Below are positions 8,666-63,152 of a stretch of 64,000 bases of DNA, piece after piece. The notes beneath the pieces were generated by a model. That model was not told where the DNA came from. It did no database searches and saw only the letters and a list, made by a program, of their open reading frames with translations. Position numbers and translations under genes: made by a program. The stretch is from a bacterium (GTDB taxonomy: Bacteria > Bacillota > SLNR01 > JBMNPB01), in NCBI GenBank assembly GCA_050943375.1, contig JBMNPB010000001.1, forward strand, positions 102,278 to 166,277. Reading direction: 5' to 3'. Position 1 is the first letter of the stretch, and each line of letters begins with the position of its first letter.

Positions 8666-9431
8666 GGACGTCCAACTCCTCCCAGATGAGATCGAAATAA
8701 GTGTTGAATTCAGGCGCCTCCCGCGCCGTGAACGGGGTGAGATGCGTGCCGGTCAGACGGATGGGATGGTCGCTTTTGATGGTGCCGGGTCGCCGGCTGA
8801 TCACAATGACCCGGTCAGACAGAGAGATGGCTTCAGAGATGTCGTGGGTGACCAGAATGACCGTTTTGCCGGCCTGACGGAGAATCTGGTGCACTTCGCC
8901 TTCCAGTGTAAGGCGCGTCTGATAATCGAGAGCGGAGAATGGTTCGTCCAGAAGGAAGATCTCCGGGTCGACCGCCATGGTTCGGATGAGCGCCGCCCGC
9001 TGCCGCATCCCGCCGGACAACTGACGAGGGTAATGGTCTTTGAACGCCCCGAGGCCATATTTATCAAGGAGGGTGCTAACGCGCCGCCGCGTCTCCGGCG
9101 TGGCTTTGCCCTGGATTTCCGGGCCGAGGAGAGCGTTGCCGAAAATGGTGCGCCATTCGAAAAGGTAATCCTGTTGGAGCATGTAACCGATTTTGCGGGA
9201 AGGTTCGCTCACTTCCGAGCCATCAATGTAAGCCCGGCCGACCGTCGGCCGCACAAGGCCGGCGATGACGGAGAGCAAAGTGCTTTTACCGCAGCCGCTG
9301 GGGCCGACGATGCTGATAAACTCCCCGTCGCGGACGACAAAGGAAATATCGGCCAAAGCGGCTGTCTCCCCGCCCGTCATTACATAATTGACCGAAACAT
9401 GTTCCAACCTGACTTTGCTGTCTACCGCCAA
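8658..9431 (-). CDS. ABC transporter ATP-binding protein (SsuB/TauB-like)
   Basis: Walker A GPSGCGKST, ABC signature LSGGMRQR, Walker B FLLDEPFSALD. Confidence 0.9.
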   Translation of the reverse strand: MAVDSKVRLEHVSVNYVMTGGETAALADISFVVRDGEFISIVGPSGCGKSTLLSVIAGLVRPTVGRAYIDGSEVSEPSRKIGYMLQQDYLFEWRTIFGNALLGPEIQGKATPETRRRVSTLLDKYGLGAFKDHYPRQLSGGMRQRAALIRTMAVDPEIFLLDEPFSALDYQTRLTLEGEVHQILRQAGKTVILVTHDISEAISLSDRVIVISRRPGTIKSDHPIRLTGTHLTPFTAREAPEFNTYFDLIWEELDVRV

Positions 9432-9494
9432 AATTTTTGCCTCCTTACGGCCGGTAGTCGGGCGGGGCCGTTATCGGTCCCGCCCAACCGGGCG

Positions 9495-10514
9495 TTATTT
9501 TACCCTCCGCAGTGTTTCTTCCGCAAATTCAGTCGTCACAATCGTTTCATAAGGGATGGGCTCGGCCAGTTCGCCGGCCTCAATCATAATCGTCTGCAGG
9601 CGGTCAAGGGATTCTTTGCTCATCACCGGATTTGGCGCCCAAGAGCCTTGCGCTTTGTACCGCTCCACCGATTTGACGATTTCCTCCCGCTCCGTATCCG
9701 GGAAATATTCAAGGATGACGTCGGTGACTTCTTCGGCCGAATGGTTTTCGACCCAGAGCTGGCCGCGGTAAACGGCGTTAGTGAATTTTTGCAGGACTTC
9801 CGGGTTCGCCGCGGCGTATTCTTTGGTGGCGTGATAGACGGTATAAGGCAGCTGGCCGCCTTCGATGCCGAAGGAAGCGACGATATGGGCGGTACCGGTC
9901 CGCTCGAAGGCGGAGGCGGTAGGTTCGAACAATTGGATGAAATCACCCATACCACCTTGGAAGGCGCCGGCGGTGGCATTGAACTGGATATTCTGGACCA
10001 TGTCCAGGTCCCCATGGGGATCAATGCCGTTCTCCCGCAGGACATATTCCATGATCATCTGCGGCACGCCGCCCGCGCGTCCCCCGATAATCGTCTTACC
10101 CCGCACGTCGTCCCAGGTGAAGTCAGGCTGCGGCTCCCGGGACAGGAAGAAGGAGCCGTCCGTAGCGGTAAGCTGGGCGAAGGCGATGAAATGGTTCTCC
10201 GCGCCCTGAGCGGCTACATAGATTCCGGCTTCGGGGCCGAACAGGGCAATATCGGCAGTGCCGGCCAGCAGGTCGGCGGCCCCTTTGTCGGCCCCCCAGG
10301 CTGTGGTGAGTTCCGTGATATCGAGGCCTTCGGCAGCAAAGAACCCTTCTTTAAGAGCGACATACTGGGGAGCGTAGAATACGGACCGGACGACCTCGGA
10401 CAGCCGGACCTCCGGCAGTGCCCCTTCCGTTCGGCCGCCGCACCCGCCGGCAGCCCCGGCCACGGCCACCAAAAGCAGGACAAGGCTGAGCTTTACCAGA
10501 TTACTTCTTATCAC
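9495..10514 (-). CDS. ABC transporter substrate-binding lipoprotein (NMT1/THI5-SsuA-like)
   Basis: Signal peptide with lipobox (…VAVAGAAGGC). Periplasmic binding-protein fold typical of the sulfonate/nitrate/HMP binding family. GTG start with RBS agggaggg. Confidence 0.8.
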   Translation of the reverse strand: MIRSNLVKLSLVLLLVAVAGAAGGCGGRTEGALPEVRLSEVVRSVFYAPQYVALKEGFFAAEGLDITELTTAWGADKGAADLLAGTADIALFGPEAGIYVAAQGAENHFIAFAQLTATDGSFFLSREPQPDFTWDDVRGKTIIGGRAGGVPQMIMEYVLRENGIDPHGDLDMVQNIQFNATAGAFQGGMGDFIQLFEPTASAFERTGTAHIVASFGIEGGQLPYTVYHATKEYAAANPEVLQKFTNAVYRGQLWVENHSAEEVTDVILEYFPDTEREEIVKSVERYKAQGSWAPNPVMSKESLDRLQTIMIEAGELAEPIPYETIVTTEFAEETLRRVK

Positions 10515-10635
10515 ACCAATCCCTCCCTGTTTCTATTCAGAAGCGGCGGCGGGACTTTATCCCGCCTTGTTTATTGTATTAAGGTCCTGGCTCATCGGTG
10601 ATTAGCGCACAAAAAAAGAAGCGGCTCGCCGAAAG

Positions 10636-10669: not shown

Positions 10670-10925
10670 AATAAACATCAATAATAATGACAACAGCAAA
10701 GAAAGGGAGAAGTAGACTGTTTTCACCGTCAGAGAAGGAGGTGTCAGGTGTAAGCCTCCCCGGTTGGAAACTCTCGAAGGTCGCCTTGGAGCTTCCGGGC
10801 TGAAGGCAGTAAGCCCGGGCGGGTACGCCCGTTACTGCGCCGAGTGTCCCGGCCCCGGTCGGGGAACTAAGGTGGTACCGCGGAAATGAACCCTTTCCGT
10901 CCTTATGGGCGGCGAGGGTTTTGTT
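10670..10925 (+). promoter_or_regulatory. T-box riboswitch leader of valS (with intrinsic terminator 10891-10925)
   Basis: AGAGA (GA/K-turn) box at ~10731. AGTA-like box (gcagtaa). Conserved T-box sequence aactaaGGTGGTACCGCGg at 10865-10883. A terminator hairpin ccctttccgtcc/gggcggcgaggg plus a U-run follows directly. Sits upstream of an aminoacyl-tRNA synthetase gene. Confidence 0.8.
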
Positions 10926-10959
10926 ATTGAGGCTAAATCTTGCGATGGGAGGACTGTGC

Positions 10960-13620
10960 ATGACTGCGCAAAAAAATTTGCCGACGGTCTATGACCCGAA
11001 GGCGGTCGAGAGCAAGTGGTATGATTATTGGCTGACCGAGAAATATTTTCACGCGGAAGTAGACAAGGACAAAAAACCGTACAGCATTGTCATTCCGCCG
11101 CCGAATGTTACCGGCTCTCTTCATATGGGCCACGCCCTGAACAATACTCTGCAGGACATCCTCATCCGCTGGCACAGGATGCTGGGCGAAAATGTCGTCT
11201 GGATTCCCGGCACGGACCACGCCGGCATCGCAACCCAGGTAGTTGTGGAGAGGGAACTGGCCAAGGAAGGGAAGACCAGGCATGATCTCGGCCGGGAAGC
11301 TTTTATCGAGCGAGTCTGGCAATGGAAGGAGCAATACGGCAACAGAATTATCGAACAGCTGCAGCGGCTGGGGACGTCCTGTGACTGGGACCGGGAAAGG
11401 TTCACTATGGATGAGCGCTGCTCCCGGGCGGTCCGGGAAGTTTTCGTCCATCTATACGAGAAAGGTCTGATTTACCAGGGCGACTTTATCATCAACTGGT
11501 GCCCCCGCTGTCTCACCGCCCTGTCGGATTTGGAGGTGGAGCATAATGAAACCGGCGGTCGTCTCCATTATGTCCGCTATTCCCTGGCAGACAGCGATGA
11601 GTCCATCATGGTGGCGACGACGCGGCCGGAGACAATTCTCGGGGATACCGGCATTGCCGTACACCCGGAAGATGAGCGGTACCGGCATCTGATCGGCCGC
11701 AATGCTCTCCTGCCGCTGCTGAATCGGGAATTGCCGATTATTGCCGACGATTATGTAGACCCGGAGTTCGGGACCGGAGCCGTCAAAGTCACTCCGGCTC
11801 ACGACCCGAACGACTTCGCCATGGGCGAGCGGCACAACTTGCCGAGCGTGGTGGTCATCGACGAGAAAGGCGGCATGAACGAAAATGCCGGTAAATACGC
11901 CGGGATGGATCGTTACGAATGCCGCCAGGCGATTCTGGCGGACCTGAAGACAATGGGATTCCTGGTGAAAGTGGAAGAACACACTCATGCCGTCGGACAT
12001 TGCTCCCGTTGCGATACAGTGGTTGAGCCAATGCTCTCCAAACAATGGTTTGTGAAAATGCAGCCTCTGGCCGAGCCGGCCATGCAGGTCGTCCGGGAAG
12101 GTAAGATCAAATTCGTCCCGGAACGGTTCGCCGATACTTATCTTTATTGGCTGGAGAATATTCACGATTGGTGCATTTCCCGCCAGCTCTGGTGGGGACA
12201 CCGAATCCCGGCGTGGTACTGCCGGGACTGCGGGGAAGTGCTTGTCGCGAAGGAAGATCCGACCCAATGCGGCAAATGCGGCGGCAAAAATCTCGTGCAG
12301 GACCCGGATGTGCTGGATACCTGGTTCAGTTCGGCCCTCTGGCCTTTCTCGACTCTCGGGTGGCCAGACGAAACACCGGAACTGGAGCATTTCTATCCAA
12401 CGTCGGTGCTCGCTACCGGCTACGATATCATCTTCTTCTGGGTTGCCCGGATGATTTTCATGGGCCTCGAGTTCCGGCAGGAAATTCCGTTCCATGAGGT
12501 GTTCATCAATGGACTGATTCGGGACGCGGAAGGGAAGAAAATGAGCAAGTCGCGGGGCAACACCATTGATCCCCTCGGCATTATCGAGCAGTACGGGACG
12601 GACACGCTGCGCTTCACTCTCGTGACCGGCAGTTCGCCCGGCAACGATATTCGCCTGTTCACGGAAAAATTCGAGGGTATCCGTAATTTCGCCAATAAAA
12701 TCTGGAACGCGTCCCGCTTCGTGCTGATGAATCAGGACGATACGGACGCCGGGCTGGCGGTCCCGGCACCGGAACAGCTGACCCTCGCCGACAAATGGAT
12801 TATCGGCCGGTACAACTTCGTCGCCGGTGAAATCACCCGCCTCCTGGCGCGCTATGATTTCAGCGAGGCGAGCAAAACATTATACGACTTCATCTGGAAC
12901 GAATATTGCGACTGGTATATTGAATTGGCCAAGCCGCGGCTCTACGGGAAGGAGAACGCCGCCGACCGGAAAACAGCCCAGGCCGTCCTCCGGTATGTCC
13001 TGAGCAATACCTTGAAGCTGCTACACCCCTTCATGCCCTTCATCACCGAGGAAATTTGGCAGGCCCTGCCGCACGACGGGGAAAGCATCATGGTCAGTCC
13101 CTGGCCGGAGCCGGAAATTGCGTCTGACCCGGCGGCGGAAGCGACGATGGAATTGTGCATGGAAGTCATCAAGTCCATCCGGAGCATTCGCGCCGAGATG
13201 GGTGTCGCTCCCGGTAAGAAAGCGGATGTTATCCTGCAGGCGGCGGAGGCGGGCGTCTACGCTGATCTGGAAGCAGGCTTGGGATACATCGAGCAGCTGG
13301 GCAGCGCGGCCGCTTTGACATTGACCCGGACGCTGGCGGAAAAACCGCGCAATGCGGCGGCTGCCATCACCCGGGGCGTGGAAATCTATCTGCCGCTGAA
13401 AGGTCTGATCGATATCGACAAGGAAATTGGTCGCCTGGAAAGCGAACTTGCGACTGCCCGGGCCGAAATCGGTCGGGCCGCGGGCAAACTCGCCAACACT
13501 GGTTTTCTGGCCAAGGCTCCGGCGGAAGTGGTGGAGAAGGAGAAAGCGAAGCAGGCGGAATATCAGGAGAAGGAAAGCAAGATCAAAGCGAGAATAAGAC
13601 AGCTCAAAGAGATGGCGTAA
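10960..13620 (+). CDS. valS: valyl-tRNA synthetase
   Basis: Class I HIGH (…SLHMGHA…) and KMSKS motifs, CP1 editing domain and C-terminal coiled coil. ATG 10960 with RBS gggagga. The ORF-track start 10921 lies inside the T-box terminator and is rejected. Confidence 0.95.
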
Positions 13621-17343: not shown

Positions 17344-17835
17344 ATGGCAGAGGTATGCAAATACTGCGGTGACCGGCAAGTAGAGATGTATAAGGCTTTG
17401 GACAAGGTCATCGCGGAATACAAGGGCAAGCCCGGAGCGCTGATTCCGGTATTGCACCAGGCGCAGCAAATCTTCGGCTGCCTGCCTAAGGAAGTTCAGA
17501 TCCATGTGGCTGAAGGCTTGGACGTTCCGCTGGGCGACGTGTACGGAGTAATCACCTTTTACGCCTTCTTCTCTATGAAGCCGAAAGGGAAATACCAGAT
17601 CGGCGTCTGCATGGGTACGGCCTGTTATGTCAAAGGAGCGGTCAAAGTTCTGGAAGCATTGGAACAGCAGCTGGGAATAAGGCAGGACGATACCACGGAA
17701 GACGGCAAATTTTCGCTTGAGGTGCTGCGCTGCATCGGCGCCTGCGGTCTGGCGCCGGCCATCAAAATCAACGATGAAGTCTACGGCCGGATGACGGCGG
17801 GCAAAGTGGCCGAAGTATTGGCGAAATACGCCTGA
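17344..17835 (+). CDS. hydC: NuoE-like [2Fe-2S] subunit of NADH-dependent [FeFe]-hydrogenase (HydC/HndA-type)
   Basis: Thioredoxin-like [2Fe-2S] NuoE family motifs (…GTACYVKGA…RCIGACGLAP…). RBS gaaggagg. First gene of a hydrogenase operon. Confidence 0.9.
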   Translation: MAEVCKYCGDRQVEMYKALDKVIAEYKGKPGALIPVLHQAQQIFGCLPKEVQIHVAEGLDVPLGDVYGVITFYAFFSMKPKGKYQIGVCMGTACYVKGAVKVLEALEQQLGIRQDDTTEDGKFSLEVLRCIGACGLAPAIKINDEVYGRMTAGKVAEVLAKYA

Positions 17836-17850: not shown

Positions 17851-18405
17851 ATGCGCGAACTGTCCCTACATATCATTGATATCCTGGAGAATTCCCGAAC
17901 GGCGGGGGCAACGCGAATTGACTTAGCCATCCGGCTCGATTCGGCGGCCGACCGGCTGACTATCCGGGTCACGGACAACGGCAGGGGCATGGACGCCGAG
18001 ATGGTCCGGCGGGCGACCGACCCGTTTGTGACTACCCGGACGGCGCGGAAGGTCGGTTTGGGGCTGCCGCTCTTAGCGGCGGCGGCAAGCCGCTGCCACG
18101 GCGATCTGTCGATTGTCTCGGAGCCGGGCAAGGGCACAAGCGTGACGGCGTTGTTTCAGCACAGTCACATCGACCGGGCGCCGCTGGGAAATATCATCGA
18201 TACCGTAACCGTATTCATCAGCGGTAATCCCGAAATCGCATTTATTCTTCGTTACAGCGTGGACGGCCGGGAAATGCGGTTGGACACGGCGGAATTGCAG
18301 GCAGAATTAAGCGATGTATCACTGAGCCACCCTTTGGTGGCCGGTTGGATAAAGCAGTACCTGCGGAAGAAATTGATTGAATTACGCGGAGGTGAAGATT
18401 GGTGA
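17851..18405 (+). CDS. GHKL (histidine-kinase-like) ATPase-domain protein embedded in the hydrogenase operon
   Basis: HATPase_c motifs (N-box …IDLAIR…, G-boxes DNGRGM and GLGLPL, GKGTSV). No HisKA or receiver domain. Similar proteins sit between hydC and hydD in Thermoanaerobacter-type hydrogenase clusters. Confidence 0.75.
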   Translation: MRELSLHIIDILENSRTAGATRIDLAIRLDSAADRLTIRVTDNGRGMDAEMVRRATDPFVTTRTARKVGLGLPLLAAAASRCHGDLSIVSEPGKGTSVTALFQHSHIDRAPLGNIIDTVTVFISGNPEIAFILRYSVDGREMRLDTAELQAELSDVSLSHPLVAGWIKQYLRKKLIELRGGEDW

Positions 18406-18764
18406 AGTCGTTGGCGGAATTGGCGGAATTACGAAAGAAGGCGCAAGAAATGACCCGGCTGCGGGAAGGAGACGCGCCGTTGAAAGTAGTGGTCGGTATG
18501 GGCACTTGCGGTATCGCGGCCGGAGCGAGAGATACGATGGCGGCCATTCTGGACGAATTGGCCCAGCATAATAGGGATGATGTAACGGTAACCCAGACGG
18601 GATGCGCTGGGCGGTGCGAGATGGAACCGCTGGTGGAAGTGTGCGAACCGGGCCAGCCCAAAGTCACTTACGGCAAGGTGACTCCAGAGAGAGCCCGCCG
18701 CATAGTCGCCGAGCATATCGGCAGCGGCCGGATAATCGAGGAGTGGGTCGTAGCTAAGCAGTAA
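18399..18764 (+). CDS. hydD: thioredoxin-like [2Fe-2S] ferredoxin subunit (HydD/HndB-type)
   Basis: 121 aa. Cys motifs CGIAAG…C…C typical of NuoE-like/HndB ferredoxins. TTG/GTG start after RBS ggaggtg. Confidence 0.8.
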   Translation: MVKSLAELAELRKKAQEMTRLREGDAPLKVVVGMGTCGIAAGARDTMAAILDELAQHNRDDVTVTQTGCAGRCEMEPLVEVCEPGQPKVTYGKVTPERARRIVAEHIGSGRIIEEWVVAKQ

Positions 18765-18904: not shown

Positions 18905-20698
18905 ATGGACAGGGTTAGGGCGCACGTTTTGGTTTGCGCCGGGGCCGGCTGCATTTCCTCCAACTGCAAGGCGGTGGAGGAGGCCCTGGTCGATGAACTG
19001 GAGAAACAGGGGCTGGCGCAGGAAGTTAAAGTAGTTGAAACCGGCTGCATCGGCACCTGCGAGCTTGGCCCCATCATGGTAATTTACCCGGAAGGGATAT
19101 TTTACTGCAAGCTTAGGCCGGAAGACGCCAGGGAAATTGTCAGCGAGCACCTGCTGAAAGGGCGCCGGGTGGAGCGGCTGATGTACCGGCGGCCGGGCAG
19201 CGATATACCCATCGAAGCTGTCGACAATATCGACTTTTTCCGCAAGCAGGTACGGATTGCCCTGCGGAACACCGGTATCATCAATCCGGAAATCATCGAG
19301 GAATATATTGCCCGGGACGGTTACGCCGCTCTCGGCAAAGTGCTCACGGAGACGACTCCGGCGGAAGTCATTGATATAATGAAGAAGTCGGGCTTGCGGG
19401 GACGCGGCGGCGCCGGTTTCCCGACCGGCCTCAAATGGGAGTTTACGGCGAAAGCGAAAGGAACTCCCAAATACATTGTCTGCAACGCGGACGAAGGCGA
19501 TCCGGGTGCTTTTATGGACCGGAGCATTCTGGAAGGCGACCCGCACAGCATTATTGAAGCGATGGCCATCGCCGCTTATGCGGTGGGGGCAAACCAGGGC
19601 TATGTCTATGTCCGGGCTGAGTATCCCCTGGCAGTGGAAAGATTGAGCCAGGCGATCGGCAAGGCAAGAGAATACGGCCTGCTGGGCAAGAATATCCTTG
19701 GCACGGGATTTGATTTCGACCTGGAAATCCGGATCGGGGCCGGCGCTTTTGTATGCGGCGAAGAAACGGCACTGCTCGCCTCCATCGAAGGCAATCGCGG
19801 CGAACCGCGGCCGAAGCCGCCGTTCCCGGCGAACGAAGGAGTCTGGGGCAAGCCGACTTTGAACAACAATGTGGAGACTTACGCTAATGTTCCGGCGATA
19901 ATTCTCAAAGGCTGGGAATGGTATTCCGGCATCGGAACGGAGAAAAGTAAAGGCACGAAGGTTTTCGCCCTCGCCGGCAAGTGCAACACGGCGGGGCTTG
20001 TGGAAGTGCCGATGGGTACGACGCTACGGGAGATTATTTACGATATTGGCGGCGGTATCCAGGGTGGCAAGAAGTTCAAGGCGGCCCAGATCGGCGGACC
20101 TTCCGGCGCCTGCCTGACGGCCGAGCATTTAGACCTGCCGATGGACTATGAAAATCTGAAGGCGGTAGGTGCCATGGTCGGCTCGGGCGGCCTGATTGTT
20201 ATCGACGAGGACAACTGCATGGTTGACGTGGCGAGATTCTTCCTCGACTTCACCCAGGATGAATCCTGCGGGAAATGCGTGCCTTGCCGGATCGGGACGA
20301 AGCGGATGCTGGAAGTCCTGAACCGGATCTGTGAAGGAAAAGGTGAAGAAGGCGATATCGATAACCTGTATGAGTTGGCCAAAGTCATCAGCGGCTCCGC
20401 CCTTTGCGCGCTCGGTCAGACGGCACCAAACCCGGTGTTGAGTACGATTAAACACTTCCGGGATGAATATGAAGCGCACATTAAAGAGAGGCATTGTCCG
20501 GCGGGTATTTGTAAACCGCTCATCACATACACCATTAATCCCGCTGTCTGCCGTGCCTGCGGACTGTGCGCCAAGGCCTGCCCGGTAGAGGCCATCAGCG
20601 GGAAAGTGAAGGACAGCTTCGCCATTGGCCAGGCGAAATGCATTAAATGCGGCACTTGCCTGGAAAAATGCCCGTTCGGAGCAATTGAGAAAAAATAA
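18905..20698 (+). CDS. hydB: NuoF-like NADH-binding flavo-FeS subunit (HydB/HndC-type)
   Basis: N-terminal thioredoxin-like domain, then a 51-kDa NADH/FMN fold (GLRGRGGAGFPTGLKW) and SLBB domain. [4Fe-4S] NuoF motif (CGKCVPCR) and two C-terminal ferredoxin-type CxxCxxCxxxCP motifs. Confidence 0.9.
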   Translation: MDRVRAHVLVCAGAGCISSNCKAVEEALVDELEKQGLAQEVKVVETGCIGTCELGPIMVIYPEGIFYCKLRPEDAREIVSEHLLKGRRVERLMYRRPGSDIPIEAVDNIDFFRKQVRIALRNTGIINPEIIEEYIARDGYAALGKVLTETTPAEVIDIMKKSGLRGRGGAGFPTGLKWEFTAKAKGTPKYIVCNADEGDPGAFMDRSILEGDPHSIIEAMAIAAYAVGANQGYVYVRAEYPLAVERLSQAIGKAREYGLLGKNILGTGFDFDLEIRIGAGAFVCGEETALLASIEGNRGEPRPKPPFPANEGVWGKPTLNNNVETYANVPAIILKGWEWYSGIGTEKSKGTKVFALAGKCNTAGLVEVPMGTTLREIIYDIGGGIQGGKKFKAAQIGGPSGACLTAEHLDLPMDYENLKAVGAMVGSGGLIVIDEDNCMVDVARFFLDFTQDESCGKCVPCRIGTKRMLEVLNRICEGKGEEGDIDNLYELAKVISGSALCALGQTAPNPVLSTIKHFRDEYEAHIKERHCPAGICKPLITYTINPAVCRACGLCAKACPVEAISGKVKDSFAIGQAKCIKCGTCLEKCPFGAIEKK

Positions 20699-20752
20699 GG
20701 ATGCCGCCAAAGGGCAACGGAAGGCATTCAAAAAGAAGGAGTGTGTAAGGCA

Positions 20753-22480
20753 ATGGTATCGCTGAACATCGACGGGCGGAACGTCAGCGTTGAACCCGGG
20801 ACGACTGTGCTGCACGCGGCAGAAAAAGCCGGGATTCACATTCCGACCCTTTGTTATCTGAAAGACATCAACTGCATCGGCGCCTGCCGGGTTTGCGTAG
20901 TGGAAGTCGAAGGCGCTCGGGCGCTGCAGACCGCCTGCACTTATCCGGTGGCGGAAGGCATGGTCGTGAAGACCAACACCCCGGCAGTGCGGGCGGCGAG
21001 GAAAGCGGTAGTCGAATTAATCTTGTCCGACCACCCCCAAGACTGTCTGACTTGTTTCCGCAATCAGAACTGCGAGCTGCAGAAACTGGCCCAAGATCTC
21101 AATGTCCGGGAAGTCCGTTTCGCCGGCGAACAGACCCATCATCCCATCGATGCCTCCAGCCTGGCAATCGTCCGTGAACCGGACAAATGCATTCTTTGCC
21201 GGCGCTGCATCAGTGTCTGCCAGCAAGTGCAGGGCGTTCACGCCATCGGAATGGCGGAGCGGGGCTTCAAAAGCCTCGTCACCCCGGTTTTCGGGGAGGA
21301 CTTGGCTGACGTCGCCTGCGCCAATTGCGGCCAATGCGTTCTCGCCTGCCCGACCGGCGCTCTGCACGAGAAAGACGATACCGATAAAGTCTGGGCGGCC
21401 TTGACCGATCCGACGAAGCATGTCATCATTCAGACGGCTCCGGCCGTCCGGGTTGCAGTGGGCGAGGAGATGGGAATGGAGCCCGGGAGCCTCGTTACCG
21501 GCAAGATGGTGGCTGCGATCCGGCGGCTTGGCTCTGACAAAGTGTTTGACACCGACTTTACGGCCGATCTGACGATAATGGAAGAAGGGCACGAATTGCT
21601 GCACCGTTTGAACAACGGCGGCAAGCTGCCGATGATCACCTCCTGCAGCCCCGGCTGGATCAAGTATATTGAGCATTTTTACCCGAATCTTCTGGAGCAT
21701 CTCTCGACGTGCAAATCACCGCAGCAGATGTTCGGGGCACTGGCCAAGACGTATTACGCGGAGAAGGAAGGCATCGACCCGAAAGATATTGTCAGCGTTT
21801 CGGTAATGCCCTGCACGGCGAAGAAGTTCGAAGCCAAGCGGCCGGAAATGGATGACAGCGGCTATCAGGATGTGGATATCGCGATTACGACCCGGGAACT
21901 GGGCAGGATGTTCCGGGAAGCTGGGTTAGATTTTGCGAATCTGCCGGAGGAAGAATACGACGCTCCGCTGGGAATCAGCACCGGCGCCGGTGTTATCTTC
22001 GGCGCGACGGGCGGCGTCATGGAAGCGGCCCTGCGCACGGTGTACGAAGTCGTGACCGGCAAGACGCTGGAAAAAGTCGAGTTCACGGCGGTCCGGGGCC
22101 TGGAAGGCATCAAAGAAGCAACGGTTCAGGCTGGTGACATACCGGTGAAGGTGGCGGTAGCGCACGGCCTTGCCAATGCCCGGAAGATAATGGATCTGAT
22201 TCAAGACGGAAAAGCCGATTATCAATTCATCGAAATCATGTGCTGCCCGGGCGGGTGTATTGGTGGCGGCGGCCAGCCAATCCCGACCAATACCAAAATA
22301 CGCGGCAAGCGGGCGATGGCCATCTACACCGCGGATGAACTCTCAGTTATCCGCAAATCCCATGAAAACCCGGCGGTGCAGACATTGTACAAAGAATTCC
22401 TGGAGAAGCCCCTCGGGGAAAAATCCCATCATCTGCTGCACACTCATTACACGAAGCGGCCAAAATACCCGAAGGTTTAG
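20753..22480 (+). CDS. hydA: [FeFe]-hydrogenase catalytic subunit with NuoG-like N-terminal FeS domains and variant H-cluster motifs
   Basis: N-terminal 2Fe-2S and 4Fe-4S domains. H-cluster motifs: L1 ITSCSPGW (21632-21658), L2 MPCTAKKFE and L3 EIMCCPGGCIGGGGQP. ATG 20753 with RBS aaggag. Confidence 0.9.
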   Translation: MVSLNIDGRNVSVEPGTTVLHAAEKAGIHIPTLCYLKDINCIGACRVCVVEVEGARALQTACTYPVAEGMVVKTNTPAVRAARKAVVELILSDHPQDCLTCFRNQNCELQKLAQDLNVREVRFAGEQTHHPIDASSLAIVREPDKCILCRRCISVCQQVQGVHAIGMAERGFKSLVTPVFGEDLADVACANCGQCVLACPTGALHEKDDTDKVWAALTDPTKHVIIQTAPAVRVAVGEEMGMEPGSLVTGKMVAAIRRLGSDKVFDTDFTADLTIMEEGHELLHRLNNGGKLPMITSCSPGWIKYIEHFYPNLLEHLSTCKSPQQMFGALAKTYYAEKEGIDPKDIVSVSVMPCTAKKFEAKRPEMDDSGYQDVDIAITTRELGRMFREAGLDFANLPEEEYDAPLGISTGAGVIFGATGGVMEAALRTVYEVVTGKTLEKVEFTAVRGLEGIKEATVQAGDIPVKVAVAHGLANARKIMDLIQDGKADYQFIEIMCCPGGCIGGGGQPIPTNTKIRGKRAMAIYTADELSVIRKSHENPAVQTLYKEFLEKPLGEKSHHLLHTHYTKRPKYPKV

Positions 22481-23388: not shown

Positions 23389-23742
23389 TTGCCTCTTGTT
23401 CTTGAAGATGTTCGTCGTATTCTGGACGCGGAAATCATCAGCGGGGAAGAGAGGCTGGAGCGCCCAGTCGCTACGGTTTGCGCCTCCGATATGATGAGCG
23501 ATGTCCTAACGGTTGCCAAGGAACACGCAATCCTGCTTACGAGTCTCGCCAATCAGTATGTCATCCGCACGGCCGAAATAACCGATCTGGATGCGATTGT
23601 GTTTGTCTGCGGCAAGCGGCCGGATGCTGCCGCTACCGCTTTGGCCCGCCGAGTCGGCATGCCCCTTATGGCGACCGGCAAAACAATGTTTGAAAGCTGC
23701 GGCCTGTTGTATGGACATGGATTTAGGAGTGTTGCGCAGTAA
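23389..23742 (+). CDS. DRTGG-domain protein
   Basis: 117 aa. DRTGG-type fold signature (…DMMSDVLT…AILLTSLAN…DLDAIVFVCG…). TTG start after RBS ggggagg. Confidence 0.7.
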   Translation: MPLVLEDVRRILDAEIISGEERLERPVATVCASDMMSDVLTVAKEHAILLTSLANQYVIRTAEITDLDAIVFVCGKRPDAAATALARRVGMPLMATGKTMFESCGLLYGHGFRSVAQ

Positions 23743-23777
23743 AGCGGGGCGGTCTGGGAGCAGTGGGAGGAAAAAGA

Positions 23778-24245
23778 ATGGCTGGCGAGGAAAGTAGCGG
23801 GAGAAAGTCCGCCCCTGTGCTGACAATGTCGTTCCCGGTCAACTACCGGAACTTCGGAGCGGTCGGGGAAGCCGCCAGCCGAATTAAGACCGCGCTTCAA
23901 AAAATCGGCGTACCGCCTCCGATTATCCGACGGGTGGCAGTTGCCGCTTATGAAACGGCAATGAATATCGCAATTCACGCCGAGCGGGGCGACCTTATCT
24001 TAATCATCAACCCCGACTGCATCGAGATTTTAGCGGAAGACACCGGAGCCGGAATTGCTGATTTGGAGATGGCCATGCAGGAGGGGTATTCGACTGCCCC
24101 CGATTATATCCGGAAAATGGGTTTCGGTGCCGGAATGGGACTGCCCAACAGCAAGCGCTGTGCCGATATATTTGAACTCCGCTCTCAACTCGGCAAAGGT
24201 ACGACAGTCTACATCCGGATTAATGTTCCGGAACAAGCCGAATAA
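23778..24245 (+). CDS. GHKL ATPase (anti-sigma-factor/RsbW-SpoIIAB-like HATPase_c) protein
   Basis: HATPase_c N-, G1- and G2-boxes (…AYETAMNIAIHA…, DTGAGI, GFGAGMGL). ATG 23778 with RBS gggagg. Confidence 0.7.
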   Translation: MAGEESSGRKSAPVLTMSFPVNYRNFGAVGEAASRIKTALQKIGVPPPIIRRVAVAAYETAMNIAIHAERGDLILIINPDCIEILAEDTGAGIADLEMAMQEGYSTAPDYIRKMGFGAGMGLPNSKRCADIFELRSQLGKGTTVYIRINVPEQAE

Positions 24246-24313
24246 CGATGAAAAGAAACAGCCGGCTCGGTAACGCCCCGGGCCGGGGAGAGAAGGCAAG
24301 CGAGGTGAGAAGA

Positions 24314-24652
24314 ATGAAACTGGGAGACCTGGCCAGGGAGCTAGGTCTGCGGGTCTGCAGCGGACAGGAGTATCTGGAGCGAGAAGTGACCGGGGGTTAT
24401 TGCTCGGACATGCTCAGTGACGTCATGGCTCATGCGCAGGAAGGCAATATTTGGCTGACTATCCAGACTCATCAGAACATCGTCGCGGTGGCTTCTCTCC
24501 TCGGGCTGTGCGCCATTGTTATTACCGGCGGTGGTGAACCGGATGCGGACACGCTGGGAAAAGCCCAAAAAGAGGAAGTCGCTATTCTTACCACTGCGTG
24601 GTTTTCATTTGAAACAGGCGGCCGGATTTATCAACTGCTGGCCAAAGGATAG
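24314..24652 (+). CDS. DRTGG-domain protein (second copy)
   Basis: Paralogous to 23389-23742 (…GYCSDMLSDVMA…IWLTIQTHQN…AIVITGG…). ATG 24314 with RBS gaggtgag. Confidence 0.7.
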   Translation: MKLGDLARELGLRVCSGQEYLEREVTGGYCSDMLSDVMAHAQEGNIWLTIQTHQNIVAVASLLGLCAIVITGGGEPDADTLGKAQKEEVAILTTAWFSFETGGRIYQLLAKG

Positions 24653-25114: not shown

Positions 25115-25158
25115 GCCAGCGTGTGTGCAATTTTTCACAAATTTTGCTCAAATCCATA

Positions 25159-25677
25159 ATGAAGCTGAGGGAGGTGTTTTCATTGGCAAAACGCAAGACG
25201 GTTGTACCGTTTCAGGGCACAGCAGAGCAGGAAGCGAAGCTTCTGGAGATTATCGAGAAGCATAAAGGGGTGCAAGGCGCATTGATGCCGGTCCTGCAGC
25301 AGGCCCAGGATCTTTACGGCTATCTTCCCATCGAGGTCCAGAGAATCATTGCCGATAAGATGGGCTTGCCGCTGTCGGAGGTCTATGGCGTAGCTACGTT
25401 CTACGCACAGTTCACTCTCAATCCGAAAGGCAAGCACCAGATTGCAGTCTGTCTGGGGACTGCTTGCTATGTAAAGGGTTCGGGCGCGGTGATTGAACGT
25501 ATCGGCCAGAAGCTCGGCATCGAACCGGGCGGGATTACCCCGGACGGCTTGTTCTCGCTGGAGGCGACACGTTGCATCGGCGCTTGCGGACTGGCGCCGG
25601 CGATGACCATCGACGGCAAGGTTTACGGCCGCCTGACTCCGGCAGATGTGGATGAAATCATTGATTCATACAAGTAG
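25159..25677 (+). CDS. NuoE-like [2Fe-2S] subunit (paralog of hydC) of the formate dehydrogenase module
   Basis: Same NuoE signature (GTACYVKGS…RCIGACGLAP). Start ambiguous: ATG 25159, or TTG 25183 after gagggagg. Confidence 0.85.
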   Translation: MKLREVFSLAKRKTVVPFQGTAEQEAKLLEIIEKHKGVQGALMPVLQQAQDLYGYLPIEVQRIIADKMGLPLSEVYGVATFYAQFTLNPKGKHQIAVCLGTACYVKGSGAVIERIGQKLGIEPGGITPDGLFSLEATRCIGACGLAPAMTIDGKVYGRLTPADVDEIIDSYK

Positions 25678-25738
25678 GACGAGTCTTGGCTTTAACGACT
25701 CGCAGCAATTGTGAAAAATCATAAGGAGGTGTATTCCT

Positions 25739-27598
25739 ATGAAATCCCTGGCGGAACTTGCCGAATACCGGGAAAAAGTGAAGGCTGAATGCAATTTGCG
25801 TCAAGACAAATCGGACGACACGCGGGTGTTGGTCGGTTATGCGACATGCGGAATTGCAGCCGGCGCTACCCCGGTGCTGGACGCCTTTATCGAAGAAGTT
25901 GGCAAACGTCGACTCCCGAAAGTGATGGTGACCCAGACCGGCTGTATCGGTATCTGTAAGCTCGAACCAGTGGTGGAAATCCTCGAGCCCGGCAAAGAAA
26001 AAGTGACCTATGTGGAATTGACTCCGGATAAGGTGGAAAAAATCGTCACAGAGCATCTGCAAAACGGCCGGGTGGTCGATGAATACACGATCGGCGCCCA
26101 TGAGGAAGGCATCCAGAGTCTGAACGACAGCAAGTTTTACAAGAAGCAGCGACGCGTGGCGCTGCGGAACTCCGGAATCATCAATCCAGAGTCAATCGAC
26201 GAATACATCGCCCGTGACGGTTATGAAGCGCTCGGGCGCGTGCTGACCAGCATGCAACCGGAAGACGTCATCGCTACCATCAAGAATTCCGGCCTGCGTG
26301 GCCGTGGCGGTGCCGGCTTCCCGACCGGCCTGAAGTGGCAGTTCGCTGCGGCCAGCCCCGGACCGGTGAAATATGTCTGCTGCAACGCCGACGAAGGCGA
26401 CCCCGGCGCGTTCATGGACAGATCGGTGCTGGAAGGCGATCCCCACGCTTTGCTGGAGGCGATGACTATCGCCGGTTACGCCATAGGTGCGCATCAAGGA
26501 TATATCTATGTCCGGGCTGAGTATCCGACCGCAATCAAGCGCCTGCAGATCGCTATCGACCAAGCGCATAAATACGGTTTCCTGGGCAAAAACATCTTTA
26601 ACACCGGTTTCGATTTTGATCTGGAACTGAGGCTTGGCTCGGGTGCGTTCGTGTGCGGCGAGGAGACGGCGCTGATGATCTCCATCGAAGGTAAGCGCGG
26701 TGAGCCCAGACCCCGGCCGCCTTTCCCGGCAGTCAAAGGTCTGTTTGACAAGCCCACTATTCTGAACAACGTTGAGACTTACGCTAATATCCCGCGCATT
26801 ATTCTGAACGGCGCCGACTGGTTCTCCGCCGTCGGAACCGAAAAATCGAAAGGCACCAAAGTGTTCTGCCTGGTCGGCAAAATCAACAACACCGGCTTGG
26901 TGGAAATCCCGATGGGTACAACTTTGCGGGAGGTAATCGAGGAAATCGGCGGCGGCATCCAGGGCGGCAAGAAATTTAAGGCAGCGCAGACCGGCGGTCC
27001 CTCGGGCGGCTGCATCCCCGCATCCTTAATCGATACACCCATCGATTACGATAACCTCGTCGCCATCGGCGCGATGATGGGCTCGGGCGGTCTCATCGTT
27101 ATGGATGAGGACACATGCATGGTGGACATCGCTAAGTTCTTCCTGGAATTCACGGCCGAGGAGTCCTGCGGTAAGTGCACACCCTGCCGCATCGGAACGA
27201 AACGTCTGCTGGAAATGCTCGAGAAGATCACCCGTGGCGAAGGCACACTGGAACTGCTTGACGACATGGAAGAGCTGTGTAACGGCATCAAAAACAACAG
27301 CCTTTGCGCCCTCGGTCAGACAGCCCCGAACCCGGTTCTGTCAACGCTGCGCTATTTCCGGGATGAATATGTTGCCCATGTGGTCGACAAAAAATGCCCG
27401 GCTGGTGTTTGTAGGGATCTGCTGTCCTATGAGATTGACGCCGACAAGTGCATCGGCTGCACGGCTTGTGCCAGAGCCTGCCCGGCGGGTGCCATCTCCG
27501 GCAAGGTTAAGGAAAAGCATGTTATCGATAAGGCCAAGTGCATCAAGTGCGGCGCTTGCCTCGAAGCTTGTAAGTTCGGCGCCGTCGCCAAGAAATAA
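25739..27598 (+). CDS. NuoF-like NAD(H)-binding flavo-FeS subunit with fused N-terminal thioredoxin-like ferredoxin domain (paralog of hydB)
   Basis: GLRGRGGAGFPTGLKW, CGKCTPCR and C-terminal 2x[4Fe-4S] motifs. Collinear with 18905-20698. Confidence 0.9.
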   Translation: MKSLAELAEYREKVKAECNLRQDKSDDTRVLVGYATCGIAAGATPVLDAFIEEVGKRRLPKVMVTQTGCIGICKLEPVVEILEPGKEKVTYVELTPDKVEKIVTEHLQNGRVVDEYTIGAHEEGIQSLNDSKFYKKQRRVALRNSGIINPESIDEYIARDGYEALGRVLTSMQPEDVIATIKNSGLRGRGGAGFPTGLKWQFAAASPGPVKYVCCNADEGDPGAFMDRSVLEGDPHALLEAMTIAGYAIGAHQGYIYVRAEYPTAIKRLQIAIDQAHKYGFLGKNIFNTGFDFDLELRLGSGAFVCGEETALMISIEGKRGEPRPRPPFPAVKGLFDKPTILNNVETYANIPRIILNGADWFSAVGTEKSKGTKVFCLVGKINNTGLVEIPMGTTLREVIEEIGGGIQGGKKFKAAQTGGPSGGCIPASLIDTPIDYDNLVAIGAMMGSGGLIVMDEDTCMVDIAKFFLEFTAEESCGKCTPCRIGTKRLLEMLEKITRGEGTLELLDDMEELCNGIKNNSLCALGQTAPNPVLSTLRYFRDEYVAHVVDKKCPAGVCRDLLSYEIDADKCIGCTACARACPAGAISGKVKEKHVIDKAKCIKCGACLEACKFGAVAKK

Positions 27599-27785
27599 GC
27601 GATATTCTTGTCTGCATCCCGTTTAAGGCGGGATCCGGCTGCGGCCGTCCTGGCGCCGCCGGCAATGAAGCCAGCGGTTTTTGTCTCGTCAGAGAAAGAA
27701 GGCGGACGGCTGACCGGGGTGCAGGTGTCGCTTCATCATCACACAACAAGGATTCACTTCAGTGAATTCACGAGGAGGGATAACC

Positions 27786-30461
27786 TTGATAAACGTCACC
27801 ATCGACGGCATTCCGGTACAGGTGGAAGAAGGCGCAACCATTCTCGATGCCGCCGAAAAGGCCGGAATTCATATTCCCACCCTCTGTCATTTAAAGGGGG
27901 TCACCGGCGAAGGCTCCTGCCGGATGTGTTTGGTCGAGGTCGAAGGTGTGCGCGGTATGCCAGCCGCCTGCTCCTTCCCGGTGGCTGAGGGCAATGTGGT
28001 TCACACCGACACCCCCAAAGTCATCGAAAGCCGCAAGTTCGTCCTGAACCTGCTGCTCTCGAACCACAGAACGGATTGCTTCTCCTGTGCCAAAAACGGC
28101 GATTGCAAGCTGCAGGAGTACTGCTATGAATATGGAATCGAGATGTCGAAATACGAAGGCGAAAAAACCGAAGCTCCCATTGACGACAGCAACGAGTTCT
28201 TCACTTACGATCCTTCCCAATGCATCATGTGCCGTCGTTGCGTAAACACTTGCCACAAGCTGCACGGCGTCGGCGCCATCTCCGTTGTCGACCGGGGTTT
28301 TTCGGCGGCAATCCGCGCCCCCTTCGACGAACTGCTGAAAAGCAGCGACTGCGTCTCCTGCGGCAATTGCGTCTCCAACTGCCCGGTCGGCGCCCTGGCT
28401 CCCAAATCGAAGCATCGTTTCCGTACTTGGGAAGTCAAACACGTTCCGACCACCTGCAGTTACTGCGGCGTCGGCTGCCAATTGGATCTGCTGGTCAAGG
28501 GTAATAAAGTGGTCGGCGTACAACCGCTTGACGGTCCCGCCAACCACGGACTGCTTTGCGTCAAAGGCAAATTCGGGTATGAGTTTATCGACCATCCCGA
28601 CCGCCTGAAGAAGCCGCTGATTCGCAAGGACGGCGAATTGGTGGAAACGAGCTGGGATGAGGCGCTTGACTATGTGGCCGACAAACTGAAGGCGATCAAG
28701 GCCGAAAGTGGCCCCGACGCCATCGCCGGCTTGACCAGCGCCCGCTGCACCAACGAAGAGAACTATGCTTTTATGAAGATGATGCGCGCAGCCGTCGGCA
28801 CTAACAATGTCGATCACTGCGCCCGCCTCTGACACTCCCCAACGGTGGCCGGTCTGGCCGCCACACTGGGGTCCGGTGCTATGACTAACTCTATCGCGGA
28901 AGTAGCTGACGCTGATCTGGTCTTTGTGACCGGTTCCAATACCACTGAAACGCATCCGGTTATCGGTTCGCTGATCCGGCAGGCCAAACGTAAGGGCGGC
29001 AAGCTCATTGTGGCTGAACCGAGGAAGATTCCGCTCTGCCGCGAGGCTGATTTGTTCCTGCAGATCAAACCGGGTACCAACGTCGCGCTGCTCAACGGGA
29101 TGATGAACGTCATCATTGCCGAAGGACTGCAGGACCAGGCATACATTGATGCCCGCACCGAAGGCTACGAGGAGCTGAAAGCGGTTGTCGCCGACTACAC
29201 TCCCGATAAAGTGGCCGAAATCTGCGGTATCGAAGCGGAAGACCTGAAGACCGCGGCCCGGATGTATGCCGAGGCCGGTGTAGCCGGTATCTTTTATGCC
29301 ATGGGTGTGACCCAGCATACAACCGGTACGGAAGGGGTCATGAGTACTGCCAACCTGGCGCTGCTGTGCGGCAATATCGGCAAATACGCCGGCGGTGTTA
29401 ACCCGCTGCGCGGACAGAACAACGTCCAGGGCGCCTGCGATATGGGCGGGCTGCCCGGTGATTTCTCCGGCTATCAGAAAGTAGCGAACCCGGCCGTTAT
29501 CGAGAAATTCGAGAAGGCCTGGGGTGTGAAGCTGTCCAATAAGCCCGGCTACACCGTCATGGAAATGATGGACGCTATCGACAAAGGCGAGGTTCGCGCT
29601 ATGTATATCATGGGTGAGAATCCCATGATTTCCGACCCCGATATCCAGCACGTCGAACACGCGCTTAAAAAATGCGAGCTCCTCGTGGTTCAGGATATCT
29701 TCCTGACCGAAACGGCTGCTCTCGCCGACGTTGTTCTCCCGGCCGCTGCTTTCGCTGAGAAGGATGGTACCTTTACTAACACCGAGCGGCGCGTGCAGCT
29801 GGTCAACAAGGCGGTGGAAGCACCCGGCGAGGCGAGAACCGACTTGGATATCATTAACGATATGACAGCGCGCCTCGGATACAAAAACAACTTCGCGACT
29901 CCGGCCGAAGTGCTGGCGGAAATCGCCGCGGTGACGCCTTCCTACGGAGGGATGTCGGTGGAGCGGCTCAAGGACGGAGGGCTGCAGTGGCCCTGCCCCG
30001 ACAAGGACCATCCCGGCACTCCTATCCTGCATGCTAAGAAGTTCTCCCGCGGCGAGCGCGCGATCTTCAAGCCGGCGAAGTACCGTTCCGGAGCGGAACA
30101 GCCCGATGCTGAATATCCTTATATCTTCACGACGGGCCGGATCCTTTATCAGTATCACACCCGCACTATGTCGGGCAAGGTCGACGGTCTTAACGCCATC
30201 GCGGGCAACTCCTATGTGGAGATTAACCCGACCGATGCCGCGAAATACGGCATTAAGCAGGGCGACGCCGTCACGGTCAGCTCCCGGCGGGGCAGCGTGA
30301 CCGTCCCGGCTCAGGTCACGGAGGCGGTCGCCGAAGGGATTATCTTCATGCCCTTCCATTTCGCCGACGGTCCGGCCAATCTGCTGACTAACGCTGTATA
30401 TGATCCTATCGCCAAGATCCCGGAATACAAGGTCTGCGCAGTCAAGATCCGAAAAGGATAA
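27786..30461 (+). CDS. fdhA: selenocysteine-containing formate dehydrogenase alpha subunit (NuoG-like N-terminus plus molybdopterin domain); in-frame UGA at 28830-28832
   Basis: The ORF-track ORFs 27762-28832 and 28845-30461 are in the same frame. The junction reads …VDHCARL-U-HSPTVAGLAA…, the canonical Sec context of Fdh-type enzymes. A SECIS-like hairpin follows. TTG 27786 after RBS gaggaggg. Confidence 0.85.
28837..28871 (+). promoter_or_regulatory. bacterial SECIS-like hairpin 5 nt downstream of the in-frame UGA
   Basis: Lower stem cccc/gggg, internal loop, upper stem gtggc(c)gg/ccgccac with a bulged C and apical loop UCUGG. Confidence 0.55.
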
Positions 30462-33908: not shown

Positions 33909-35135
33909 ATGAGCAAACGGGTTTTCTTGGAAGGAGCCGACCTGCGGCAATTGCGGGGGACGACCGCCGAAAAAACGATTGTCGCTGTCCCCGCTCCGGC
34001 GAGCGTCGTGCTGTTTGTCGGCGATCTGGAAATGCTTGTCAAAGCCGGAGACACGGTGCTGGCCGGTCAGATGCTGGCGCACAGTAAAGCGCTTTTATCT
34101 GTCCCGGTCCACGCCAGTATCGCCGGCAAGATCAAGCAGGTGGAAGACTTGCCCAATCCGAACGGCGGTCTGGCCCGGGCGGTAGTGATTGAGAATGACG
34201 GCTCGGGAGCGGTGCACGAGACGGTGCAGAAGCCGGGCAATTGGGAGTCCATGCCGGCCGATGCTTTGCGGGACGCAATTTTCAACGCCGGTATTTATCT
34301 TCCTCCCTTCGGCGGCGACCGGCCAGGCCAGGTATTGGTAAACTGCGCGGTAAGTGAGCCTTCGATTACCGCCGATTATCGCCTGATGCTGGAGCGGGCG
34401 GCCGATATTGTCAGCGGCCTTGCGGCCGCAATTAAGGCGGTCGGCGCCAAACAAGGGATAATTGTCGTGGACAAGAGAGAACTCGAAGCGGTGCAGGCGA
34501 TGCGGAAAGCTTTGCCGGCGGACGGCACCATCGGTCTTGTCGCCCCGGACAATCGTTATCCGCCGCTGGCGGAAAAGCTGCTGTTCAGGGATGTGACCGG
34601 GGGTAAGATGCCCAGCGTCATCATGACTGCGGGCGAAGCAGTGGCGATCAGTGAATTTCTGCAGACTGGCAAACCGTATATCGAAAAGACGGTGACCGTT
34701 ACCGGATCCGGCGTGCGGGAACCTGGCAATTATCAGATGCCGTTGGGGATGCGCTGCCGCGACGCGCTTGCGGCCGCGGCGAAGATCGAAGGAGAAATCG
34801 GCCAGATTATTCTGGGCGGTCCTCTGGCGGGAACACTGGCGGCTTCGGCGGATGTACCGCTCACGAAAAAAATGGACGGTATTCTGGTCTTGGCCGCCGC
34901 CGATGTGCGGCGGGATAAGCCGGGGAAATGCGTCCGCTGCGGGGCTTGTATTCAGGTCTGTCCCATCGGGCTGATGCCGCTGTATCTGGGGGATGTGGCC
35001 GAGGCCGGCCGGGCCGGTGAAGCTGCCGCTTACCACGTTGACGAATGTGTTGAGTGCGGCGCCTGTGCTTACGAATGTCCGGCGAAGCGGCCGCTGCTGC
35101 AGTATATCAGGCTGGCCAAAGGCGAGGGGAAATAA
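33909..35135 (+). CDS. rnfC: Rnf complex subunit C (divergent nucleotide-binding loop)
   Basis: RnfC_N, SLBB-like region (…LVNCAVSEPSITADYRLMLE…) and two C-terminal [4Fe-4S] motifs (CVRCGACIQVCP, CVECGACAYECP). First gene of rnfCDGEAB. Confidence 0.8.
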   Translation: MSKRVFLEGADLRQLRGTTAEKTIVAVPAPASVVLFVGDLEMLVKAGDTVLAGQMLAHSKALLSVPVHASIAGKIKQVEDLPNPNGGLARAVVIENDGSGAVHETVQKPGNWESMPADALRDAIFNAGIYLPPFGGDRPGQVLVNCAVSEPSITADYRLMLERAADIVSGLAAAIKAVGAKQGIIVVDKRELEAVQAMRKALPADGTIGLVAPDNRYPPLAEKLLFRDVTGGKMPSVIMTAGEAVAISEFLQTGKPYIEKTVTVTGSGVREPGNYQMPLGMRCRDALAAAAKIEGEIGQIILGGPLAGTLAASADVPLTKKMDGILVLAAADVRRDKPGKCVRCGACIQVCPIGLMPLYLGDVAEAGRAGEAAAYHVDECVECGACAYECPAKRPLLQYIRLAKGEGK

Positions 35136-55869: not shown

Positions 55870-55965
55870 CTGTTGACGGCATTAGCCGTCTCTGCCGCAC
55901 AAAGCAGGTTGTAAAATACTCCGGTATTACCTGATTTTGGCGAGTCTGAAGCAGGAGGTGCAGAG
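55870..55965 (+). promoter_or_regulatory. structured 5' leader of rplU-prp-rpmA (L21-leader-like)
   Basis: Hairpin gacggcattagccgtc and further pairing before RBS ggaggtg. Firmicute rplU operons carry a conserved autoregulatory leader. Confidence 0.45.

Positions 55966-63076: not shown

Positions 63077-63152
<76 letters not shown>

Follow-up and report, generated by a model that had tools for sequence, protein, structure and literature searches.

In the electron-bifurcating HydABC hydrogenase of Acetobacterium woodii one cysteine that ligates cluster A1, which is Cys299 in Thermoanaerobacter kivui, is replaced by Ser301, and this enzyme is active and bifurcating, has been solved by cryo-electron microscopy and has an H-cluster infrared signature that is unaffected (Katsyv et al. 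2023, PMC10021017). The motif TSCSPGW was also noted in the trimeric hydrogenases of Melainabacteria (Di Rienzi et al. 2013, PMC3787301), and a paper from 2024 states that in older signature patterns the second P1 cysteine 'is not always present' (PMC11011570). An engineered counterpart exists in CrHydA1, where the C170S variant retained the [4Fe-4S] cubane, accepted the [2Fe] subsite more slowly, contained more [3Fe-4S] cluster and had the highest activity among the ligand variants, with its bias shifted toward H2 evolution (Kertess et al. 2017, PMC5855289). Serine in place of a cubane cysteine is already known for an active bifurcating enzyme, and so is not new here. The gene considered in this analysis is hydA, which encodes the catalytic [FeFe]-hydrogenase subunit and lies in a 64,000-nucleotide stretch of DNA from a member of the Bacillota (contig JBMNPB010000001.1 of assembly GCA_050943375.1), referred to as the window. 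Its product has serine instead of the second cysteine of motif L1 and cysteine instead of alanine directly before the first cysteine of motif L3. TSCSPGW and a Met-Cys-Cys (MCC) start of L3 are both normal for a large, characterised family of NADH-dependent electron-bifurcating [FeFe]-hydrogenases, and do not mark an atypical or sensory enzyme.

The open reading frame (ORF) of hydA was listed from a GTG start as 20741..22480 on the forward strand, giving 579 amino acids. The most likely start is the ATG at 20753, because a Shine-Dalgarno sequence (GAAGGAG) stands 11 nt upstream of it and an identical database protein, P0001, is 575 amino acids long. Residues are numbered here on the 579-residue frame, from which four is subtracted for the 575-residue protein. 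The identical protein was deposited independently in NCBI and JGI, and its source is a metagenome-assembled genome. Translation gave TGC at 21644-21646 for Cys302 and AGC at 21647-21649 for Ser303, exactly where the initial annotation had read the serine, and L2 was found intact as it had stated. The cysteine in place of alanine in L3 was confirmed as Cys501 (TGC 22241-22243), followed by Cys502 (TGC 22244-22246) and Cys506 (TGT 22256-22258); the span of ~22240-22266 given earlier was a few bases off, and its residues were right.

Residues were matched to those of known enzymes using phmmer alignments to solved structures, which contained no gaps around L1 and L3, and a global alignment to CpI. 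Ser303 corresponds to Cys300 of CpI, Cys299 of T. kivui HydA1 and Ser301 of A. woodii HydA1. The serine had been taken to lie at a cluster-binding position and the alignment bears this out, CpI Cys300 being a cubane ligand of [4Fe-4S]H, so that cubane ligation in HydA would formally be altered from cysteine to serine. The proton relay Cys299 of CpI corresponds to Cys302, the cubane ligands Cys355 and Cys499 to Cys358 and Cys502, and the bridging ligand Cys503 to Cys506; Cys501 aligns with CpI Ala498, at the position before the first L3 cysteine, here termed L3(-1). The proton-transfer pathway is intact, with E279, S319, E282 and R286 of CpI appearing as E282, S322, E285 and R289, and the second-sphere residues K358, M353, M497, P231 and F417 are kept as K361, M356, M500, P234 and F420.

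HydA scored 949.8 bits over model positions 1-571 of 571 of the NCBIfam model NF040763, 'NADH-dependent [FeFe] hydrogenase, group A6' (cutoff 765), and 548 bits against TIGR02512 (cutoff 406). The group A6 name is given by NCBI both to the identical protein of the metagenome-assembled genome and to A. woodii HydA1, and this group corresponds to group A3 of HydDB. The Pfam matches (Fer2_4, NADH-G_4Fe-4S_3, Fer4, Fe_hyd_lg_C (PF02906, E=2.2e-103) and Fe_hyd_SSU) describe an M3 architecture with a small-subunit-like tail, and the Pfam search found no PAS domain or extra C-terminal domain in HydA. The H-domain, the L2 and L3 ligands, the relay cysteine and the proton pathway of a catalytic group A enzyme are all present, with serine at the position of the L1 ligand. 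The AlphaFold2 model had a pLDDT confidence of 89.4 and gave template modelling (TM) scores of 0.94 to 7q4w_A and 0.96 to 8a6t_A. In this model strand 492-496 and helix 501-504 (575-residue numbering) flank the loop that contains Cys501.

The closest solved HydA was that of A. woodii (7q4v_A, E=1.8e-219, 57% identity). HydA1 of A. woodii (7Q4V/7Q4W, PMC10021017) shares with the window HydA its M3 architecture, its A6 assignment, the serine of TSCSPGW and the order of five genes, and differs in L3, which is LMACPGGC with alanine there and IMCCPGGC with Cys501 here. T. kivui HydA1 (8A6T) is 54% identical and has the same bifurcating HydABC architecture, but retains the cysteine ligand (Cys299) in TSCCPSW and has VMACPGGC as its L3. 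The group A reference CpI (e.g. PDB 4XDC) is 43% identical over the full length and its proton-pathway and second-sphere residues match one to one, but it is monomeric and ferredoxin-dependent and has cysteine at position 300 and alanine at position 498. Engineered CrHydA1 C170S (PMC5855289) carries the same exchange of the L1 cubane cysteine for serine and is still active; that variant is artificial, matures slowly and has lower activity, whereas serine is an evolved family consensus here.

hydA is the last of five genes, encoding in order HydC, a HATPase_c protein, a small [2Fe-2S] protein, HydB and HydA, and this order is identical on the A. woodii chromosome (Table 1). The co-encoding of a NuoF-like HydB and a NuoE-like HydC with HydA is the genetic mark of HydABC. 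HydB carries a [2Fe-2S] domain at its N terminus and a 2x[4Fe-4S] domain at its C terminus, and its alignment to HydB of A. woodii (7q4v_B, E=2.4e-271) spans the whole protein. GGPSG is a hallmark of bifurcating beta subunits (Losey et al. 2020, PMC7311640), and HydB contains it within AAQIGGPSGACL in the SLBB region, this being the one of three hallmark positions that was mapped. The small protein encoded before HydB gave weak matches to NCBIfam 2Fe-2S ferredoxin models, and its A. woodii counterpart at the same position has 132 amino acids. The complex is predicted from its genes to be an NADH- and ferredoxin-linked, flavin-based electron-bifurcating HydABC. HydA itself, whose sequence had been deposited before, very probably belongs as an ordinary member to the serine-type group A6 bifurcating HydABC hydrogenases, in which TSCSP is the family consensus.

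The frequency of each change was measured among the relatives of three enzymes. The 120 closest 90%-identity clusters of the window HydA (67-100% identity) had TSCSP in 117 cases, and at L3(-1) had cysteine in 86, alanine in 23, serine in seven and glycine in three, with L3 unreadable in one. Most members of this subclade have a cysteine at the Cys501 position. TSCSP was present in 116 of 117 relatives of A. woodii HydA1, among which L3(-1) was alanine in 93, glycine in 22, valine in one and cysteine in none; cysteine was likewise absent from the site in the full set of 117. The 50%-identity representatives, drawn from 1.84 billion proteins, included TSCSP with MAC, MGC, MTC and MCC, and TSCCP with MCC in P0245 and P0258. 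All 120 relatives of P0258 had TSCCP, with cysteine at L3(-1) in 52, threonine in 62, alanine in five and glycine in one. These are M2-type group A enzymes of ~460 amino acids from Maridesulfovibrio, Pseudodesulfovibrio, Halodesulfovibrio and others, mostly Desulfovibrionales, which share with the window HydA a Cys-Cys that opens L3 (EVMCCxGGC) but belong to another clade, with the canonical TSCCP and without the N-terminal [2Fe-2S]/NuoG-like domains. Taken over these alignments, L3(-1) reads as a variable small-residue site (A/G/S/T/C/V).

Species-representative genomes were also scanned with degenerate DNA for M-C-C-x-x-G-C-x-x-G-x-G-Q-P, which gave at least 120 loci from many phyla; among the matches listed, TSCSP was found in 105 of the 107 MCC-type loci with a readable L1. 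Both changes are present in Pelotomaculum isophthalicicum, Desulfofundulus thermobenzoicus, D. thermocisternus, D. thermosubterraneus, Desulfotruncus alcoholivorax, Clostridium cuniculi and Merdimmobilis hominis. The L1 serine is encoded in 111 related genes by six codons from both serine families (TCN 76, AGY 35), and has therefore long been maintained by selection. Screening for the literal TSCCPxW or MAC would mistakenly single out or exclude functional bifurcating hydrogenases of a very large clade, which are found in syntrophs, acetogens and gut Clostridia. The L3 Cys-Cys is common, occurring in at least 120 species-level genomes, and is weakly associated with the serine ligand; searches of the searchable literature with motif strings including MCCPGGC and CCPGGC found no mention or discussion of it, and the relevant papers that the literature searches did find were Di Rienzi et al. 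2013 and Katsyv et al. 2023.

The initial annotation regarded the two changes as coordinated, one cubane ligand being lost in L1 and a cysteine gained nearby in L3. That they form a coordinated, compensating pair does not hold, since the serine stands without an L3 cysteine in the 116 A. woodii relatives and the L3 cysteine stands with TSCCP in 52 of the P0258 relatives. Each change occurs without the other across large clades, and neither therefore requires the other; the combination of serine and alanine works in the A. woodii enzyme. The pairing of MCC with TSCSP in the genome scan was considered as proof of coupling and rejected, as the figure covers the matches listed and reflects clade abundance, and a clade with TSCCP and MCC was found among the P0258 relatives. 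Closer to the window HydA, the nearest relative, P0002 (88% identical), has MAC, and P0003 to P0005 (76% identical) have MGC; because of this, Cys501 appears to have been gained recently in its lineage. A change from alanine to cysteine takes two nucleotide changes by way of glycine or serine, and both of these states are seen at L3(-1).

The proposed working of the active site follows the solved homologs. Ser303 would bind one of the [4Fe-4S]H irons through its oxygen, and Cys358, Cys502 and the bridging Cys506 would be the other three cubane ligands. The di-iron site would receive protons at its bridgehead amine from the relay Cys302 via E282, S322, E285 and R289. As in the complexes solved from A. 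woodii and T. kivui, electrons would pass through the F-clusters of HydA to HydB, with its flavin mononucleotide and NAD+, and also to ferredoxin. Cys501 would lie in the second sphere, next to the ligand Cys502; the likeliest account of this substitution is that it is tolerated or has a mild tuning effect and does not supply a replacement ligand.

Several results weigh against this assignment. The ligation by Ser303 is taken from a homolog that is 57% identical and was solved at ~3.5 Å. No biochemically or structurally characterised enzyme with both TSCSP and MCC was identified among the sequences compared, which did not include those of Moorella, Syntrophomonas and Ruminococcus albus. Among the 50%-identity representatives, cysteine at L3(-1) was found in 3/12 sequences with serine in L1 and in 2/92 sequences with cysteine ([[3,9],[2,90]], odds ratio 15, Fisher P=0.0105). 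When characters were mapped by parsimony on a neighbour-joining tree of 351 H-domains, a rough analysis, six gains of the L3(-1) cysteine fell on the serine background (branch length 18.9) and two on the cysteine background (branch length 38.7), giving a binomial P of 0.018. Four reversions of the L1 serine to cysteine were found on the same tree, with alanine at L3(-1) in three and threonine in one, and one pair with alanine was nested in an MCC subclade. The window serine clade stood apart from the A. woodii serine clade, as if there had been two cysteine-to-serine events, on a tree that is too rough to count the origins of the serine. The enrichment of the L3 cysteine on the serine background is weak and suggestive, with no obligatory pairing.

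One explanation of this enrichment is that Cys501, while not a ligand, was selected together with Ser303, in which case it could take up space vacated because the Fe-O(Ser) bond is shorter, engage in a hydrogen bond, or adjust the potential of [4Fe-4S]H, the rate of maturation or the catalytic bias. The slow insertion of [2Fe], the additional [3Fe-4S] cluster and the shifted bias of CrHydA1 C170S make improvement by a second site plausible, and MCC is the majority form of the window subclade. The enrichment nevertheless comes from about eight inferred events on the rough tree, the enzymes of A. woodii and Eubacterium have the serine without the cysteine, L3(-1) also switches to glycine, serine, threonine and valine, and the nearest relative of the window HydA has alanine. 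Such a joint selection is judged to be rather unlikely. It is distinctly unlikely that in the serine-type A6 enzymes the L3 cysteine is adaptively linked to the serine ligand, whether as a hemilabile or alternative fourth ligand in a tandem Cys-Cys or through a tuning effect of its thiol on the potential, the maturation or the oxidative robustness of [4Fe-4S]H.

A further proposal is that Cys501 and Cys502 bind the cubane together as a tandem Cys-Cys, which would restore an all-thiolate coordination and leave Ser303 as a bystander. Complex I offers a precedent for such ligation in its cluster N2. The position of Cys501 in a loop of the model would allow it some freedom, the L1 reversions to cysteine go with residues other than cysteine at L3(-1), and both the enrichment on the serine background and the 105 TSCSP loci among the 107 listed in the genome scan can be read in its favour; the latter figure, however, reflects clade abundance. 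A bystander would be expected to drift, yet the serine is strictly kept in the MCC enzymes with codons of both families, and its conservation there therefore argues against Cys501 having taken over as ligand. The A. woodii clade also functions with serine and alanine or glycine, the L3(-1) cysteine was fixed in the P0258 clade, which already has four cysteine ligands, and it was lost at least five times on the serine background of the parsimony tree. A swap of ligands is thus highly unlikely, and a second-sphere position for Cys501 is preferred.

The initial annotation had also likened HydA to sensory or atypical hydrogenases. A non-catalytic, regulatory enzyme of a group C/D-like kind with an altered H-cluster would accord with the one changed ligand and with the regulator-like HATPase and DRTGG genes within and beside the operon. 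This likeness is not sustained: the relay Cys302, the full proton pathway and the second sphere are kept, the A6 cutoff is passed, the M3 domain layout ends in a small-subunit-like tail with no PAS domain or additional C-terminal domain found by Pfam, and the protein is co-encoded with HydB and HydC in an operon like that of A. woodii, which has a HATPase gene as well. A sensory function is a very remote prospect. A sequencing or assembly error or a pseudogene, although AGC and TGC are one nucleotide apart and the source is a metagenome-assembled genome, is of almost negligible probability, as the frame is intact with all domains present, the identical protein is found independently in two databases, TSCSP and MCC recur in 117/120 and 86/120 of the closest clusters, and the serine recurs in the A. 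woodii relatives and in the listed genome loci and is written in 111 genes with six codons from both families. The initial annotation had already argued against a single sequencing error.

Three further observations concern the L3 motif. In the 121 genes made up of the listed loci and the window hydA, the codon of the L3(-1) cysteine is TGC in 107 and TGT in 14; that of the neighbouring ligand cysteine is TGC in 78 and TGT in 43, and that of the L1 relay cysteine TGC in 79 and TGT in 32. The TGC excess at L3(-1) could mean that this cysteine arose recently from GGC or AGC codons, or could be due to chance. The P0258 relatives (P0391-P0509 set), in which MCC (52) and MTC (62) alternate while TSCCP is kept, lend themselves naturally to comparisons of what a second-sphere cysteine does. 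The top match in the representative library, P0121, has 4122 amino acids, with seven matched H-domain stretches, seven L3-like motifs, of which six read EIMMCEGGCMNG and the seventh EIMMCNGGCSGG, and a single L1-like match, the unusual TSEGPRW; this is either an artefact of assembly or a giant protein with multiple H-domains.

Table 1. Positions in the window of the hyd operon, the H-cluster motifs of HydA and other features.
Feature	Position	Strand	Description
T-box leader	10690-10907	+	126.8 bits; directly upstream of valS (10921-13620)
hydC	17344..17835	+	NuoE-like thioredoxin-type [2Fe-2S] subunit, 163 aa; Pfam PF01257, E=5.6e-53; first position as in A. woodii
Histidine-kinase-like ATPase gene	17851..18405	+	184 aa; Pfam HATPase_c, E=1.8e-16; 189-aa HATPase_c gene at the same position in A. 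woodii
Small thioredoxin-like [2Fe-2S] ferredoxin gene, HydD-like	18399..18764	+	121 aa as listed; PF01257, E=5.3e-05, just under gathering score
hydB	18905..20698	+	NuoF-like FMN/NAD(H) subunit, 597 aa; Pfam Complex1_51K, NADH_4Fe-4S, SLBB, Fer4
hydA	20753..22480	+	Catalytic [FeFe]-hydrogenase subunit, M3 architecture; most likely 575 aa from ATG 20753
L1 motif TSCSPGW	21638-21658	+	aa 300-306; translation and alignment
L2 motif MPCTAKKFE	21806-21832	+	aa 356-364; Cys358 (cubane ligand), Lys361, Met356; intact
L3 motif EIMCCPGGCIGGGGQP	22232-22279	+	aa 498-513; translation and alignment
NuoE-like gene	25123-25677	+	Second Bfu-type module, downstream of hyd operon
NuoF-like gene	25739-27598	+	Second Bfu-type module, downstream of hyd operon
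Formate dehydrogenase alpha subunit (FdhA) gene	27762-30461	+	Second Bfu-type module; module span 25123-30461
RnfC-like gene	33909-35135	+	RnfC_N, Complex1_51K, Fer4; near both bifurcating modules
Ribosomal protein L21 leader	55886-55957	+	Just at gathering score
tRNA-Ala(GGC)	63077-63152	+	

Upstream of the hyd operon, a 619-amino-acid ORF at 8742-10601 on the forward strand is overlapped by the minus-strand ORFs 7817-8665, 8658-9431 and 9495-10514, and it had no Pfam match even at E=1e-3. Between the hydrogenase and formate dehydrogenase modules, positions 23389-24652 of the forward strand encode a 117-amino-acid protein with no family match, a 160-amino-acid protein like a HATPase_c/anti-sigma kinase and a 134-amino-acid DRTGG protein. 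A. woodii also has a HATPase within its operon, with HydS-like and PHP proteins upstream, and the small genes at 23389-24652 and 17851-18405 may be regulators. The RnfC-like gene suggests that an Rnf complex is encoded nearby. Together with the NuoE/NuoF/selenocysteine-FdhA module it fits an anaerobic, syntroph- or acetogen-like member of the Bacillota, and the T-box leader agrees with this. In FdhA, the TGA at 28830-28832 is in frame and stands for selenocysteine (HCARL-U-HSPTVAGL), and a hairpin of -24.9 kcal/mol, which resembles a selenocysteine insertion sequence (SECIS), was found in the 60 nt from this TGA.

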